A DNA stretch of 5,560 nt from a virus (Duplodnaviria; Heunggongvirae; Uroviricota; Caudoviricetes). Of the stretch, positions 1 to 5,560 are shown in pieces. The stretch lies in the IMG/VR virus record IMGVR_UViG_2663763232_000012; one strand, given 5' to 3'. A program made the position numbers and the translations under genes. The notes beneath the pieces are model-generated. The model saw only the letters and a list, made by a program, of their open reading frames with translations, ran no database searches and had not been told where the DNA came from. Numbering within the stretch: the first letter of the stretch is position 1; each line of letters begins with the position of its first letter.

Positions 1-205
1 TAAGGCCTTTGAATAAGACAAAAGGCTGCCTCATCGCTAACTTTGCAACAGTGCCCTTTAAAGCACGTTTTAATCCAGGTCGGCCTGTCCTTATTCCGCT
101 TAATTTATCTTCAAATATTTGTTCACATCCTGCACAAACAAGAGCGTTTCGTTGCAGGTCTGTATTCTGGTCATTTGTTGATACCCTTACATAGCCAATC
201 AGCAC
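1..205 (-). pseudogene. pin: Gin/Pin-family serine DNA invertase, 5' fragment only (about 51 native codons); frame then runs into unrelated sequence and off the window
   Basis: Minus-strand GTG at 205 with GGGAG 7 nt upstream. Translation MLIGYVRVSTNDQNTDLQRNALVCAGCEQIFEDKLSGIRTGRPGLKRALK matches the Gin/Pin/Hin N-terminus including the catalytic Ser motif (recalled). From fwd position about 55 leftward the translation (GTVAKLAMRQPFVLFKGL) lacks the conserved GDTLVVWKLDRLGRS block in any frame. Confidence 0.7.
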
Positions 206-259
206 GCTGAATCTCCCGTCCAAAAGCACAAATCATGCCATGCAGGCCAGAAACCGCCA

Positions 260-285
260 TTATCTAAAACCTCGGTTTACAGGAA
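260..285. other. gix/pix-type invertase crossover site (26 bp)
   Basis: TTATCTAAAACCTCGGTTTACAGGAA differs at one position from the Mu gix site TTATCCAAAACCTCGGTTTACAGGAA (recalled). It sits between the divergent invertase start and the tail-fibre variable cassette, as in the Mu G / P1 C / e14 P segments. Confidence 0.65.
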
Positions 286-1272
286 ACGGTAAACAGGGCC
301 AGGAACGCCGTGCAAAAGAATGGCGATACCTTGTCCGGTGGGCTTACTTTTGAAAACGACTCAATCCTTGCCTGGATTAGAAATACTGACTGGGCAAAGA
401 TTGGTTTTAAAAATAATGCCGACAGCGACACTGATTCATACATGTGGTTTGAAACAGGCGACAACGGCAATGAATATTTCAAATGGAGAAGCCGCCAGAG
501 CACCACAACAAAAGACCTGATGACTCTTAAATGGGATGCTTTGTCTGTCCTTGTTAAAGCCCTTTTCAGCAGTGAAGTAAAAATATCGACAGTCAATGCA
601 CTGAGGATATTTAATTCATCTTTTGGTGCTATTTTTCGTCGTTCTGAAGAATGCCTGCATATCATCCCTACACGAGAGAATGAGGGAGAAAATGGTGATA
701 TAGGGCCACTACGCCCCTTTACGCTTAATCTCAGAACTGGTCGGATAAGCATGGGGCATGGTCTTGATGTTACAGGGGATATATTTGCAAACCGTTTTGC
801 AATTAACAGTAGTACCGGCATGTGGATTCATATGCGTGACCAGAATGTTATTTTGGGACGCAATGCGGTATCCACCGATGGTGCGCAGGCATTACTTCGT
901 CAGGACCACGCTGATCGCAAATTTATGATTGGTGGACTGGGGAATAAGCAATTTGGCATCTACATGATTAATAACTCAAGGACAGCCAATGGCACCGATG
1001 GTCAGGCGTACATGGACAACAATGGCAACTGGCTTTGCGGTGCGCAAGTTATTCCCGGCAATTATGGTAATTTTGACTCACGTTATGTGAGAGATGTCCG
1101 ACTTGGTACACGTGTTGTTCAGACTATGCAAAAAGGCGTGATGTATGAGAAATCAGGTCATGCAATTACGGGGCTTGGCATTATCGGTGCAGTTGATGGC
1201 GATGATCCGGCAGTATTCAGACCAATACAAAAATACATCAATGGCACATGGTATAACGTCGTACAGGTGTAA
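268..1272 (+). CDS. Tail fibre protein, C-terminal variable (receptor-binding) cassette; 5'-partial and promoterless silent copy of an invertible segment
   Basis: Open frame from the TAA at 265-267 to the TAA at 1270-1272; the GTG at 310 is probably not a real start. Ends match side-tail-fibre C-terminal regions (DWAKIGFKNNADSDTDSYMWFETGDNGNEYFKWRSRQSTTTKDLMTLKWDAL ... NFDSRYVRDVRLGTRVVQ ... DGDDPAVFRPIQKYINGTWYNVVQV) with a divergent middle. The frame enters through the inner half of the gix site and is followed by a tfa gene. Confidence 0.8.
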   Translation, partial: NLGLQETVNRARNAVQKNGDTLSGGLTFENDSILAWIRNTDWAKIGFKNNADSDTDSYMWFETGDNGNEYFKWRSRQSTTTKDLMTLKWDALSVLVKALFSSEVKISTVNALRIFNSSFGAIFRRSEECLHIIPTRENEGENGDIGPLRPFTLNLRTGRISMGHGLDVTGDIFANRFAINSSTGMWIHMRDQNVILGRNAVSTDGAQALLRQDHADRKFMIGGLGNKQFGIYMINNSRTANGTDGQAYMDNNGNWLCGAQVIPGNYGNFDSRYVRDVRLGTRVVQTMQKGVMYEKSGHAITGLGIIGAVDGDDPAVFRPIQKYINGTWYNVVQV

Positions 1273-1275
1273 TTT

Positions 1276-1803
1276 ATGCAGCATTTAAAAAATATTAAGT
1301 CTGGAAATCCAAAAACAAAAGAACAATATCAGCTAACAAAGAATTTTGATGTTATCTGGTTATGGTCCGAAGACGGAAAAAACTGGTATGAGGAAGTGAA
1401 AAACTTTCAGCCAGACACAATAAAGATTGTTTACGATGCAAATAATATTATTGTCGCCATCACCAAAGATGCCTCCACGCTTAACCCTGAAGGTTATAGC
1501 GTCGTTGAGGTTCCAGATATTACAGCCAACCGCTGCGCTGATGATTCCAGTAAGTGGATGTTTAGGGACGGAGCTGTGGTTAAACGGATTTATACGGCAG
1601 ACGAGCAACAACAACAGGCCGAATCACAAAAGGCCGCATTGCTTTCCGAAGCTGAATCAGTCATCCAACCGCTGGAACGCGCTGTCAGGCTGAATATGGC
1701 AACAGACGAGGAACGCACACGACTGGAAGCATGGGAACGCTACAGTGTTCTGGTCAGCCGTGTGGATACGGCAAATCCTGAATGGCCACAAAAACCAGAG
1801 TAA
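1276..1803 (+). CDS. tfa: Tail fibre assembly protein (Mu U / Tfa family)
   Basis: 175 aa; AGGTG SD 7 nt upstream of the ATG. N-terminus [48 protein letters not shown] and C-terminus [33 protein letters not shown] are typical of U/Tfa chaperones (recalled); lies directly after the tail-fibre cassette. Confidence 0.85.
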
Positions 1804-1825
1804 AAATTAAGGCCCGATACCGGGC
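1802..1825 (-). terminator. Weak candidate intrinsic terminator for the minus-strand transcript
   Basis: Hairpin GCCCG-ATAC-CGGGC (1812-1825) is followed on the minus strand by CTTAATTTTT (rc of 1802-1811). The stem is only 5 bp and overlaps the last codons of the ParB-like ORF. Confidence 0.2.
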
Positions 1826-2238
1826 AAAACATCCGTCAACAGTTCATCAATTTCTGTCGGGCCGAAGCCTGTCAGGGAGACATCAAAATCAGCATTGATT
1901 AGGTCCGACAGCTCCATCCGCAACAGATCTTCATCCCAGCCAGCATTCATCGGTAGGCGATTATCTGCCAGGCGGTACGCCTTTTTCTGCTCATCCGTCA
2001 GGCCAGACAGAACAATGACCGGAACAGAATCCATTTTGAGCATTTCAGCCGCCATAACACGACCGTGACCCGCAATAATTTCGCCCTTTTCGTCAATCAG
2101 CACCGGATTAGTCCAGCCGAATTGCTTAATACTTTCTACCAGTTGTGCCACCTGCTCAGTACTGTGCGTCCTGGCGTTGTGCGCATACGGTGACAATTCT
2201 TGTAATGGGCGATAGACTATCTTTAATTTCTCGCTCAT
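1807..2238 (-). CDS. ParB-like nuclease-domain protein (ParB/Srx fold), standalone 143 aa; possibly the N-terminal remnant of a ParB-methyltransferase fusion
   Basis: MSEKLKIVYRPLQELSPYAHNARTHSTEQVAQLVESIKQFGWTNPVLIDEKGEIIAGHGRVMAAEMLKMDSVPVIVLSGLTDEQKKAYRLADNRLPMNAGWDEDLL shows the ParB N-terminal-domain pattern (YxPLxxL..Y..NxRxH, GHGR motif, following AxxxADN segment). The GFGPTEIDELL tail resembles the linker before the catalytic domain in ParB-MTase fusions. The ORF ends 3 bp from the convergent tfa stop. Confidence 0.75.
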   Translation of the reverse strand: MSEKLKIVYRPLQELSPYAHNARTHSTEQVAQLVESIKQFGWTNPVLIDEKGEIIAGHGRVMAAEMLKMDSVPVIVLSGLTDEQKKAYRLADNRLPMNAGWDEDLLRMELSDLINADFDVSLTGFGPTEIDELLTDVLPGIGP

Positions 2239-2250
2239 ACAGCCTTGCTT

Positions 2251-2289
2251 TATGAATAAAACGCACCCCAGCAGCCAGTGCTACTGGGG
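2251..2289 (-). terminator. Candidate rho-independent terminator between trkG and the ParB-like ORF
   Basis: Inverted repeat CCCCAGCAG / CTACTGGGG (2266-2274 / 2281-2289, one mismatch, 6-nt loop) followed on the minus strand by TGCGTTTTATTC, placed 88 bp after the trkG stop and before the ParB-like start. Confidence 0.3.
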
Positions 2290-2375
2290 GCGGAGGTGTT
2301 GCTGGTAAAGTTAGGTATTGGATCAATGAGTGAGTCAATATAATATTAAACTCACAATTATAAATCAGCCATATA

Positions 2376-3833
2376 TTAGGAGCGCCAAAAAAAACCTGAA
2401 AACAATATAATAACAGGATAAATTTCAAGGCGACCAAGAATCATAGCTATGCACATTAAATATTTTGCAATGTCATTAAGCACTCCGAATGACGATGCAG
2501 TAGCCCCAAAACCTAATCCCATATTATTAATACATGCAGCCACTGTTGCAAATGATGTAAGAAAATCATATCCCATACCATTTAACACCAGTATAAAAAA
2601 CACCGTGAAGAGAGTATAAAGAAAAAAGAAACTCCATACAGACCTCATTACACGATCTGTAACTATCTTCCCTCCTACATTTACACTCAACAACGCTCTG
2701 GGATGAGAAAGCTGATTTATCTCGTGTTTGCTTTGTTTGAAAAGTATAAGAAATCGAAGTGACTTAATTCCACCACAAGTTGAACCTATACATCCCCCAA
2801 AGAAACTTGACGACAGCAAAAACACTATCGTGTGCGTGGGCCAGTTTGCATAATCCTGCGTAGCTAAACCATTATCAGTGAGCATGGAGCTGGCAAGAAA
2901 AAACGAATGAATAAAACTTCCATGCAAGTCATACATACCTATATGCCAGACCTGGAAAGAGGTAACAATGATCACCCCTAAGGCTATTAACAGAAAGAAA
3001 CGAAGTTCAATATCTCTGATTAAAGGTTTTATCGTTTTCCTGCTAATAACAATATACCAAAGAGTGAAGTTGAAAGCCGATAGCAGGGAAAAAGAACCAG
3101 CCACCAGCTCAACCAAATAGTTATTAAAATATCCGATACTCTCGCTATGAGTTGAGAAACCACCAAGCGAAACTGTGGAAATCCCGTGACAAATAGCATC
3201 AAACAAAGGCATTCCTGCAAGTCTATAACAGACAATACAAGCAATACCTAATAAAGAATAAGTTATCCACAGTGTCCGTGACGTATCGGCCAGGCGGGGA
3301 GTGAGTTTGTCATCCTTAAATGGCCCCGGCATTTCTGACTGATAAAGCTTTGTACCACCAATACCCAATAATGGCAATACAGCAACCGCCAGAACAATAA
3401 CTCCTAAACCACCTATAAAATTTAACTGTGACCGATAGTACAAATATGCCCGAGGTAATGAACTAACATCATCAATTACAGTTGCTCCTGTTGTTGTTAT
3501 TCCAGAAACCCCTTCAAACAGAGCATCAATGAACGTTAAATTAAGTTCTGAGTCAATCCATAAAGGGAATGCACTAATAACAGAAAACAAAATCCAAAAC
3601 ATTACAATTATAATAAACCCATCACGGGTACGTAATTGAATGCCAGATTTCTTAGTTGTATACCACGCTCCGCCACCAATGCAAAAAAATATAACGAAAG
3701 TTATAAAGAAAACGAACAGGCTTTTTTCTTTATAAAACAATGCTACAACCATTGGTGGCAACATTGAAAGACTATAGAGCCAAACCAGGAACCCACACAT
3801 ATGAGTAACAACTCTTACATGAGATGTATTCAT
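2376..3833 (-). CDS. trkG: TrkH/TrkG-family potassium uptake membrane protein (prophage-borne trkG-like)
   Basis: Polytopic hydrophobic protein with TrkH-family motifs (GITTTGATVIDD selectivity-filter-like segment, GGFSTH, NNMGLGFG, GRLEI). ATG at 3833 gives 485 aa (MNTSHVRVV...), the length I recall for E. coli Rac TrkG; an in-frame TTG at 3851 with AGGTGG 6 nt upstream gives 491 aa. Visibly AT-rich relative to its neighbours. Confidence 0.85.
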   Translation of the reverse strand: MNTSHVRVVTHMCGFLVWLYSLSMLPPMVVALFYKEKSLFVFFITFVIFFCIGGGAWYTTKKSGIQLRTRDGFIIIVMFWILFSVISAFPLWIDSELNLTFIDALFEGVSGITTTGATVIDDVSSLPRAYLYYRSQLNFIGGLGVIVLAVAVLPLLGIGGTKLYQSEMPGPFKDDKLTPRLADTSRTLWITYSLLGIACIVCYRLAGMPLFDAICHGISTVSLGGFSTHSESIGYFNNYLVELVAGSFSLLSAFNFTLWYIVISRKTIKPLIRDIELRFFLLIALGVIIVTSFQVWHIGMYDLHGSFIHSFFLASSMLTDNGLATQDYANWPTHTIVFLLSSSFFGGCIGSTCGGIKSLRFLILFKQSKHEINQLSHPRALLSVNVGGKIVTDRVMRSVWSFFFLYTLFTVFFILVLNGMGYDFLTSFATVAACINNMGLGFGATASSFGVLNDIAKYLMCIAMILGRLEIYPVIILFSGFFWRS

Positions 3834-3878
3834 ATCTAAATATTCTTTCAATTATAACCACCTTGCTGCAATATTATG

Positions 3879-3884
3879 ATTATA
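3879..3884 (-). promoter_or_regulatory. Candidate -10 hexamer for trkG transcription
   Basis: Perfect TATAAT on the minus strand (fwd ATTATA 3879-3884) about 28 nt upstream of the TTG/SD; no convincing -35 at 17-bp spacing (TAAGAG at best). Confidence 0.2.
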
Positions 3885-3970
3885 CTGTATAAAATTTAAC
3901 TCCTCTTAGATCTTACTTCACTGTTCCTTATGAAACAATCATCAAAATGAATCATATTGTAGTTAAGATT

Positions 3971-4435
3971 TTACTTTAAACACTGCTCGGTTATGTATTG
4001 CTGAGCACCTTCAAGTTGGGCCTGCATCATTACCAGTCGTTCCCGGAGGGTGAAATAATCCCGTTCAGCGGTGTCTGCCAGTCGGGGGGAGGCTGCATTA
4101 TCCACGCCGGAGGCGGTGGTGGCTTCACGCACTGACTGACAGACTGCTTTGATGTGCAACCGACGACGACCAGCGGCAACATCATCACGCAGAGCATCAT
4201 TTTCAGCTTTCGCATCAGCTAACTCCTTCGTGTATTTTGCATCGAGCGCAGCAACATCACGCTGACGCATCTGCATGTCAGTAATTGCCGCGTTCGCCAG
4301 CTTCAGTTCTCTGGCATTTTTGTCGCGCTGGGCTTTGTAGGTAATGGCGTTATCACGGTAATGATTAACAGCCCATGACAGGCAGACGATGATGCAGATA
4401 ACCAGAGCGGAGATAATCGCGGTTACCCTGCTCAT
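3971..4435 (-). CDS. Rz: Rz i-spanin (inner-membrane spanin), lambda-like
   Basis: [134 protein letters not shown]... is near-identical to lambda Rz (recalled). The ATG at 4435 overlaps the endolysin stop as ATGA; the track ORF extends 4 codons further to a GTG. Confidence 0.9.
4030..4215 (-). CDS. Rz1: Rz1 o-spanin (outer-membrane lipoprotein), embedded in the +1 frame of Rz
   Basis: [57 protein letters not shown]... carries a lipobox (VVGC) and the proline-rich segment, near-identical to lambda Rz1 (recalled), and lies wholly inside Rz. Confidence 0.85.
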
Positions 4436-4656
4436 TGTTGCCCCCACAAACAGACCTCACGCTCAATCTCACGACGAGTCATCAGGCCTTTCCATTGCTT
4501 ACCGCCAGCGTATGCCCAGCGACGTAGCTGGTCACATGCGCCCTTGATATCGCCCTGGTTTATTTTGCGAAGAAGAGTAGATGTTCTGAAATTGCCTGCG
4601 CCCACGTTATAGACGAACGAGTAAAGAGCGCCGCGCGTTGTTTCCGGTAGGTGCGA
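4432..4656 (-). pseudogene. R: SAR-type endolysin (GH24 lysozyme, phage 21 R-like), 5'-truncated; only about the C-terminal 73 codons remain
   Basis: The minus-strand frame ending at the TGA (4434-4432) translates to ...[72 protein letters not shown], matching the C-terminus of R21-type lysozymes (recalled). An in-frame stop lies at 4659-4657, and no frame upstream encodes the N-terminal SAR or catalytic region. Confidence 0.75.
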
Positions 4657-4774
4657 TCACTTTCGTCTACTCCGTTACAAAGCGAGGCTGGGTATTTCCC
4701 GGCCTTTCTGTTATCAGAAATCCCCTGAAAGCACAGCGGCTGGCTGAGGAGATAAATAATAAACGGGGGGCTGT

Positions 4775-4966
4775 ATGCACAAAGCATCTCCTGTTGAGTT
4801 AAGAACGTGTATCGAGATGGCACATAGCCTCGCTCAAATTGGAGTCAGGTTTGTGCCAATACCAGTAGAAACAGACGAAGAATTTCATACGTTAGCCGCA
4901 TCCCTTTCACAAAAGCTGGAAATGATGGTGGCGAAAGCAGAAGCAGATGAGAGAGACCAGGTATGA
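4775..4966 (+). CDS. Hypothetical small protein (63 aa), resembling lambda exo-xis-region small ORFs
   Basis: ATG with a G-rich SD (GGGGGG) 4 nt upstream. Hydrophilic, protein-like composition (MHKASPVELRTCIEMAHSLAQIGVRFVPIPVETDEEFHTLAASLSQKLEMMVAKAEADERDQV). Its stop overlaps the next start as ATGA. Confidence 0.5.
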   Translation: MHKASPVELRTCIEMAHSLAQIGVRFVPIPVETDEEFHTLAASLSQKLEMMVAKAEADERDQV

Positions 4967-5046
4967 CAACCACTGAATGCATTTTTCTGGCAGCGGGCTT
5001 CATATTCTGTGTGCTTATGCTTGCCGACATGGGGCTTGTTCAATGA
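4963..5046 (+). CDS. Candidate 27-aa hydrophobic peptide (MTTTECIFLAAGFIFCVLMLADMGLVQ), translationally coupled on both sides
   Basis: Not in the supplied ORF track (too short). The ATG at 4963 overlaps the upstream stop (ATGA) and its TGA at 5044-5046 overlaps the next ATG (ATGA). One predicted transmembrane helix; purine-rich GAGAGA 8-13 nt upstream. Confidence 0.35.
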   Translation: MTTTECIFLAAGFIFCVLMLADMGLVQ

Positions 5047-5258
5047 CACCTCAGCAAGAAAACGCCCTTCGCAGCATTGCCCGTCAGGCTAATTCTGAAA
5101 TCAAAAAAGCCAGACAGCAGTTTCCGGATAAAAACGTCGATGACATTTGCCGTAGCGTACTGAAGAAGCACCGCGAAACGGTAACGCTGATGGGATTCAC
5201 ACCGACTCATTTAAGCCTGGCAATCGGCATGTTAAACGGCGTCTTTAAGGAACGATGA
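5043..5258 (+). CDS. Hypothetical small protein (71 aa from the ATG at 5043; the track ORF starts at 4977)
   Basis: MTPQQENALRSIARQANSEIKKARQQFPDKNVDDICRSVLKKHRETVTLMGFTPTHLSLAIGMLNGVFKER is hydrophilic and protein-like. The 5043 start has GGGG about 10 nt upstream and ATGA coupling; the 4977 start has no SD, and its first 22 codons overlap the hydrophobic peptide ORF. Confidence 0.5.
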   Translation: MTPQQENALRSIARQANSEIKKARQQFPDKNVDDICRSVLKKHRETVTLMGFTPTHLSLAIGMLNGVFKER

Positions 5259-5278
5259 ACATGAAAAGCAAAATTATC

Positions 5279-5303
5279 AGGGAGCTACAGGCTCCTTTTT
5301 TAT
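5279..5303 (+). terminator. Candidate rho-independent terminator after the small-gene triad
   Basis: Hairpin GGAGC-TACAG-GCTCC (5281-5295), extendable by A-U and G-U pairs, followed directly by TTTTTTATT, 23 bp downstream of the 5258 stop. Confidence 0.4.
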
Positions 5304-5356
5304 TGCTCGCATTTACCCCCAAGCGTATTAACCAACAATTCAGGGATTAATGGAAG

Positions 5357-5542
5357 ATGGCAGACATCATTGATTCAGCATCAGAAATTGAAGAATTACA
5401 GCGCAACACAGCAATAAAAATGCGCCGCCTGAACCACCAGGCTGTATCTGCCACTCATTGTTGTGAGTGTGGCGATCCCATAGATGAGCTAAGACGCCTG
5501 GCTGAACCGCCCCGGGTTTCCTGGAGAGTGTTTTATCTGTGA
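5357..5542 (+). CDS. TraR/DksA-family C4 zinc-finger protein (lambda Orf73-like), apparently frameshifted before the second CxxC
   Basis: ...ATHCCECGDPIDELRR matches the TraR pattern CxxCGNPIPEARR (recalled). In frame the ORF ends RLAEPPRVSWRVFYL* with no second CxxC; the alternative frame after the run CCGCCCCGGG (5509-5518) reads GFPGECFICELRLPD... (FPG plus CxxC) and runs to the window edge. Confidence 0.55.
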   Translation: MADIIDSASEIEELQRNTAIKMRRLNHQAVSATHCCECGDPIDELRRLAEPPRVSWRVFYL

Positions 5543-5560
5543 ACTCAGGCTGCCAGATCA

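Follow-up and report, generated by a model that had tools for sequence, protein, structure and literature searches.

The first 1,825 positions of the window (the whole stretch of DNA analysed here, 5,560 nucleotides of the virus record IMGVR_UViG_2663763232_000012) very probably hold the fossil of a tail-fibre host-range switch of the Mu/P2 type (Gin/Pin family), one that decayed stepwise within a fragment of Rac/lambdoid prophage. Such a switch is a known system; here it has been inactivated several times over and has a known insertion sequence at its edge, a case of ordinary genome decay. At the DNA level, positions 53–297 are collinear with Mu gixR-gin (91.9%) and positions 260–1825 with Mu gixL-Sv-U (80.6%), and this collinear series of invertase 5′ end, gix, Sv and U marks descent from a Mu-type G segment. 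The order invertase, gix, Sv, U corresponds to the Mu layout in which Sv-U is silent.

Functional switches of the Gin, Hin, Pin and Cin kind use a serine recombinase of about 190 amino acids, with a catalytic domain, an E-helix and a C-terminal helix–turn–helix, two 26-bp crossover sites in inverted orientation around a segment, and a Fis-dependent enhancer in cis in the 5′ part of the invertase gene, and they join a constant 5′ part of a gene alternately to two variable cassettes. What we find instead is an invertase gene cut by IS26 after codon 50, a single crossover site (in the window and in the 29.5-kb locus scanned in Escherichia coli S43) and one cassette, of the Sv-U type, with Rac DNA taking over from 1818–1825; the constant part of the tail fibre was found nowhere in the fragment. 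Nothing here can invert, because there is no recombinase, partner site or expressed fibre gene.

The invertase stub (56–205, minus strand) begins with a GTG at 205–203 and retains 50 of 193 codons. Its minus-strand translation, from 205 to 56, is VLIGYVRVSTNDQNTDLQRNALVCAGCEQIFEDKLSGIRTGRPGLKRALK, which in protein alignment is identical to residues 1–50 of Mu Gin at 48 of 50 positions (96% aa). The Pfam Resolvase profile (PF00239) matches with E=5.8e-12 over profile positions 2–57 of 145 alone. Missing from the stub are the remainder of the catalytic domain, the E-helix and the whole DNA-binding domain, and PGAP annotates it as 'recombinase family protein, incomplete, missing C-terminus'. The first-pass annotation had described about 51 intact codons that include the catalytic serine region; the early cut and the serine (Ser9, present in the stub translation) stand, and the count is corrected to exactly 50 codons from the GTG start. 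Past codon 50, the frame enters the end of IS26 with its 14-bp terminal inverted repeat (GGCACTGTTGCAAAGTTAGCG...), and the resulting 103-codon chimeric open reading frame runs through 53 codons of IS26 antisense to a stop and cannot encode a recombinase. Between the start codon and gix lies a leader (206–259, minus strand) that aligns as the homologue of the Mu gixR-gin spacer. A scan of positions 1–420 found neither a sigma-70 consensus promoter nor a terminator, and an Rfam search returned no match.

Leftward of about position 55, the first-pass annotation had noted unrelated sequence; that position is exact, and the sequence is the terminal 55 bp of IS26 (1–55, plus strand). The break falls precisely at 55|56, with the gene directly adjoining the IS26 inverted repeat. 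The transposase gene points at the stub and ends in a stop codon at 1–3, and positions 42–55 (TTTGCAACAGTGCC) are the reverse complement of the 14-bp IS26 repeat GGCACTGTTGCAAA. By this repeat, a length of 820 bp and a single transposase gene, the element is IS26, with 55 bp of it in the window. In S43, the end of a complete 820-bp IS26 (L001 11236–12055) is identical to the window sequence; RefSeq lists it as 'IS6-like element IS26 family transposase', and the end of its coding sequence corresponds to window base 3. Complete 820-bp copies sit at the identical junction in S43, in AH04 and in an Enterobacter kobei plasmid, and the 55-bp IS26 end by itself is found at thousands of plasmid places.

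Because the left end of the window lies 55 bp inside IS26 and its right end 58 bp inside an IS3-family element, as is typical of contigs broken at repeats, the 55|56 junction could in principle be an assembly artefact, with the invertase gene continuing on another contig. We give this next to no chance, since the identical junction recurs in four complete E. coli chromosomes (S43, AH04, AH02 and CT01) and in the complete E. kobei plasmid, and the IS26 inverted repeat abuts the gene to the base. No exact IS26–invertase junction was found among GTDB species representatives (0 matches).

What lies beyond IS26 varies from carrier to carrier. In S43, its left neighbours are IncHI-type transfer genes and a tnpA fragment of the Tn3 family; on that side, AH04 has unrelated genes and the E. 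kobei plasmid pMCR10_SCLZS19 has a nucleotidyltransferase/DUF86 pair. Other junctions are nested in the same DNA: in E. coli plasmids of roughly 300 kb, IS26 lies at 96|97 in the opposite orientation, in a Klebsiella quasipneumoniae IncA plasmid it lies at 138|139, and a Citrobacter plasmid carries the end of Tn5403 at position 1008|1009 of the fragment. Varied left partners together with nested junctions are the pattern that IS26 cointegrates, adjacent deletion and IS26–IS26 recombination leave. Whereas a simple IS26 insertion produces an 8-bp target-site duplication, none surrounds the element in S43 or AH04, where the flanks differ (in S43, TTGCTGAA and CTTTAAAG). This lack fits an origin by cointegrate formation, deletion or recombination and is no argument against the identity of IS26.

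Alongside these junctions, we note that the three IS26 positions (55|56, 96|97 and 138|139) fall inside 83 bp of the stub (window 56–138). The 0H26 plasmid and S43 have the same Tn3-family tnpA fragment on the far side of IS26, but the plasmid carries the element in inverted orientation and with shorter flanks on either side (839 bp and 41 bp). The shared tnpA fragment, inverted element and shortened flanks suggest a local IS26 rearrangement rather than independent arrivals. On the S43 chromosome, at 162–224 kb (L001 1–11235, L006), tens of kilobases of IncHI-type plasmid genes lie to the left of IS26, including trhI, trhN, trhU, trhW, parA/parB and parM along with more copies of IS26, a chromosomally integrated plasmid segment.

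A simpler account would have IS26 insert into an intact, working invertase gene whose remainder lies just past the element. The stub, with 96% amino acid identity to Mu Gin and 50 codons free of internal damage, and the intact gix would sit well with it, but alleles free of IS26 already contradict it. These alleles, 99.6–100% identical, occur in 027_SK3 and FORC_031 (both in the lambda attachment region, ybhB-ybhC) and in PK8568 (in Rac). In them, the gene continues past codon 50 as RLQKGDALVVWKLD and then stops at codon 65, a TGA in place of the CGC (Arg) of Mu; the product is a 64-aa 'recombinase family protein' (WP_001378636.1) that ends in ...KLD. Invertase-like sequence persists to about codon 78 and is then fused to the last roughly 30 codons of a tfa gene. 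The IS26-free alleles had also already lost the constant part of the fibre and the partner gix. In S43, moreover, a probe for the remainder of the invertase gene is absent from the 62 kb upstream, where the tnpA fragment and IncHI-type genes lie instead, and the target-site duplication is missing. Simple insertion is therefore very improbable.

Of 215 genomes that cover at least 80% of window 1–330, four have the IS26 junction. IS26 is not what killed the switch: more than 200 E. coli genomes carry an allele that lacks IS26 and is already a 64-codon stub. On these alleles, IS26 would thus be the third or a later lesion. In the Rac prophage of PK8568 (L005 5148–6153), a full-length pinR lies about 100 bp past the tfa part of the fused, dead Gin-type stub, so that one intact and one dead invertase gene stand side by side in a single prophage. 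Beside the pinR of K-12, we saw no sequence resembling gix.

The gix site occupies positions 260–285 and reads TTATCTAAAACC-TC-GGTTTACAGGAA, with its outer half (260–271) on the side of the invertase and its inner half (274–285) on the side of the cassette. The window sequence TTATCTAAAACCTCGGTTTACAGGAA agrees at 25 of 26 positions with TTATCCAAAACCTCGGTTTACAGGAA, the sequence of both Mu gix sites; as had been annotated, the sole mismatch, T265, gives a TAA at 265–267 in the outer half-site. Such a match has a chance expectation of 0.00 (200 shuffles). The further claim of a single site lacking an inverted partner is borne out: the window has no second gix on either strand at up to three mismatches, and no further 12-bp half-site at up to one mismatch beyond the site's own halves, the only two-mismatch half-site match being an isolated one at 2314. 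Nor does the 29.5-kb S43 locus contain a second gix at up to seven mismatches.

We considered T265, with its TAA, as a disabling mutation and rejected it. The invertase-proximal site of phage P88 is identical to the window gix (26/26), and in P88 the invertase gene is full-length and another site lies within the tail-fibre gene. Gin and Hin exchange strands at the central dinucleotide; the outer half-site accordingly remains on the side of the invertase gene and never enters the fibre frame, which makes the TAA irrelevant. The related phage 520873 has TTATTTAAAACC at the corresponding half-site, so these positions vary naturally. Judged by sequence, gix and the putative enhancer DNA next to it are intact leftovers of the switch.

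From gix, a variable C-terminal tail-fibre cassette (271–1272, plus strand) stays open to its stop codon and has no start codon of its own. It shares 70% amino acid identity with residues 170–504 of Mu S (Sv; E=1e-167), matches Pfam Gp34_trimer and is annotated by PGAP as 'phage tail protein, missing N-terminus'. We also tried the Mu S′ type, to which similarity is weak and confined to the ends; hence the assignment to Sv. Behind the cassette lies an intact tail-fibre assembly chaperone gene, a Mu U homologue (1276–1803, plus strand; Pfam Caudo_TAP, E=4.8e-37), with 93% amino acid identity to Mu U and 56% to U′. The cassette had been described as frozen in the silent orientation. Silent it is, with Sv-U adjoining the invertase gene, but 'frozen' understates its condition: the cassette is orphaned, because the N-terminal part of the fibre, the partner site and all tail genes have been deleted.

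Mu-G-segment-like DNA ends, and Rac-type ynaK-trkG DNA begins, at a deletion junction with an 8-bp overlap, TACCGGGC (1818–1825). K-12 Rac ynaK-trkG-rzpR matches window 1985–4415 at 99.3%. E. coli PK8568, which carries the module inside Rac, matches window 53–1825 and 1818–4649, and between the two matches it has 823 extra bp with an inverted U′ fragment, convergent with U just as U′ is in Mu. This convergent fragment implies an ancestor whose invertible segment held two cassettes.

Comparison with other genomes documents each of the lesions (the deletions, the stop codon and fusion, and the IS26 joint); we infer their order and the exact IS26 mechanism, taking the order from present-day alleles rather than from a phylogeny. 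The original order would have been the constant fibre part, gix, cassette A with its chaperone, an inverted cassette B with its chaperone, gix and the invertase gene. A first deletion, from just downstream of ynaK, would have taken every head and tail gene along with the constant part of the fibre, the distal gix and the greater part of the Sc-proximal cassette, and a further deletion of 823 bp at the 8-bp microhomology would have followed in the window's lineage, leaving the invertase-proximal Sv-U cassette and one gix. In a second step, the invertase gene would have gained the TGA at codon 65 and been fused near codon 78 to the 3′ end of tfa. Third, an IS26 event in the window's lineage, perhaps a cointegrate, an adjacent deletion or an IS26–IS26 recombination but not a simple insertion, would have replaced everything past codon 50. 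IS26 activity of this kind also ties the fragment to plasmid DNA, and the fragment is now found on plasmids of several genera.

The first-pass annotation had suggested that the retained fragment may still carry enhancer DNA, which is reasonable by analogy. The hin enhancer is 65 bp long with a Fis site at either end, lies about 100 bp from the nearest hix and can act over kilobase distances (PMC3798978), and the gin coding region contains Fis sites (PMC3378877). Placing the centre of gix at 272/273 and applying the hin geometry puts a Fis-dependent recombinational enhancer, by positional homology to those of hin and gin, at about 118–184, well within the retained 56–205. The window is 100% identical in alignment to nucleotides 1–112 of the Mu gin coding sequence, so a putative Fis enhancer appears to be kept in the 5′ part of the stub. 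The interval is approximate, because the 15-bp Fis cores that we guessed are spaced 49 bp apart, not 48 bp, and for published gin enhancer coordinates the literature yielded only general statements. A further possibility, and a long shot, is that this putatively Fis-bent, AT-rich stretch is a preferred target of IS26, an idea raised by the three different IS26 junctions within 83 bp.

Could the orphan gix and putative enhancer nevertheless be used in trans, by a Gin/Pin/Cin-type invertase encoded on another prophage or plasmid that pairs this site with a distant gix and so gives large inversions, deletions or fused replicons? P88, whose site is identical, looks like a complete system, the enhancer-bearing DNA is identical to that of Mu, E. 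coli genomes hold up to nine homologous places each and the hin enhancer has the long reach described above. Against this, the S43 chromosome has one place homologous to window 56–300 (blastn, E<=1e-5, a search that a lone 26-bp site would escape), so that chromosome holds no further pairing of gix with a close Gin-type 5′ end. Among the roughly 20 near-identical copies retrieved, we saw no variant with the cassette turned round, and wild-type invertases are limited to inverted sites on one supercoiled molecule (PMC3798978). We consider such use in trans to be very unlikely. By much the same measure, it is a long shot that the orphan gix and putative Fis enhancer form a live recombination substrate on the IncHI2, IncA and IncF plasmids of several genera to which IS26 has moved them; if they did, a resident Gin-family invertase (of Mu, P1, a P2-like phage or e14) could pair this gix with its own site and fuse or rearrange replicons.

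Beyond the relic, the remnant is a mosaic of two prophages. Its ParB-like ynaK reading frame (1807–2238, minus strand) crosses the junction at 1818–1825 and encodes 143 aa, compared with 87 aa in K-12; its stop lies 3 bp from the tfa stop, and annotators are split on whether ynaK is intact. A lysozyme gene of the rrrD type (about 4432–4650) is truncated at its N terminus, with a join near 4650 to early-left genes of lambda type (DUF1317, DUF1382 and, past the window, xis and int). The entire remnant occupies the lambda attachment region, between ybhB and ybhC, in S43 and 027_SK3, although its trkG-ynaK part is Rac-like. At the right edge, positions 5503–5560 are an IS3-family terminus (TGAACCGCCCCGGG...), annotated as IS1203-like in matching genomes, which interrupts a TraR/DksA-family gene starting at 5357; matches to close relatives stop at 5502 because all of them are without this insertion. 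Both window ends (1–55 and 5503–5560) stop 55–58 bp into insertion sequences, which suggests that the window is a whole short-read contig broken at repeats.

The prophage fragment 56–5502 (trkG, ynaK, Rz/Rz1, xis, int) is also present, 100% identical, on plasmids of several genera (L007, L011, L012, L013), the hosts being E. coli, Enterobacter kobei, E. roggenkampii, Klebsiella michiganensis, K. quasipneumoniae and Citrobacter freundii. Among these plasmids, those that were typed belong to IncA and IncFIB/IncFII, and one is named pMCR10_SCLZS19.

That the stub is an incomplete recombinase beside IS26 is already marked in RefSeq. The region is a textbook case of the stepwise decay of a prophage phase-variation module, with IS26 creating and reshuffling its boundaries. 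Its value is modest and practical: the 55|56, 96|97 and 138|139 junctions are lineage markers for the trkG-carrying prophage fragment, and the fragment so marked moves between E. coli chromosomes and multi-host resistance plasmids.

Set against known systems, the IS26 boundary resembles IS26 boundary formation generally, with the same repeat, the same 820 bp and no duplication, and its sole particularity is that the target is an invertase pseudogene. The e14 P-segment with PinE and the Rac PinR of K-12 are likewise tail-fibre inversion modules of cryptic prophages in the same species, and the flanking ynaK-trkG-rzpR DNA is that of K-12 Rac, at the 99.3% identity given above. We rejected both e14 pix/pinE and K-12 Rac pinR as the source, as too divergent from a stub that is of the Gin type and not of the PinE/PinR type: e14 pinE reaches 78% nucleotide identity over 146 bp, the e14 crossover site is CTCTCGAAAACCTTGGTTTGGGAGAA and K-12 Rac pinR gives no DNA match to the stub. 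The relic is also close to the Mu G segment and Gin, found also in D108, SfMu and P2-like Xuanwuvirus such as P88. The invertase 5′ end is 92% identical to that of Mu in nucleotides and 96% in amino acids, gix agrees at 25/26 positions with Mu and 26/26 with P88, the Mu spacing from gix to the start codon is kept, Sv-U is an orthologous cassette and the layout of invertase gene, gix, fibre C terminus and chaperone is the same. Unlike Mu, the relic has 50 of 193 invertase codons, one gix rather than two, one cassette rather than two and no constant S part, and it is surrounded by the debris of a Rac/lambdoid prophage, not by a Mu or P2 genome.
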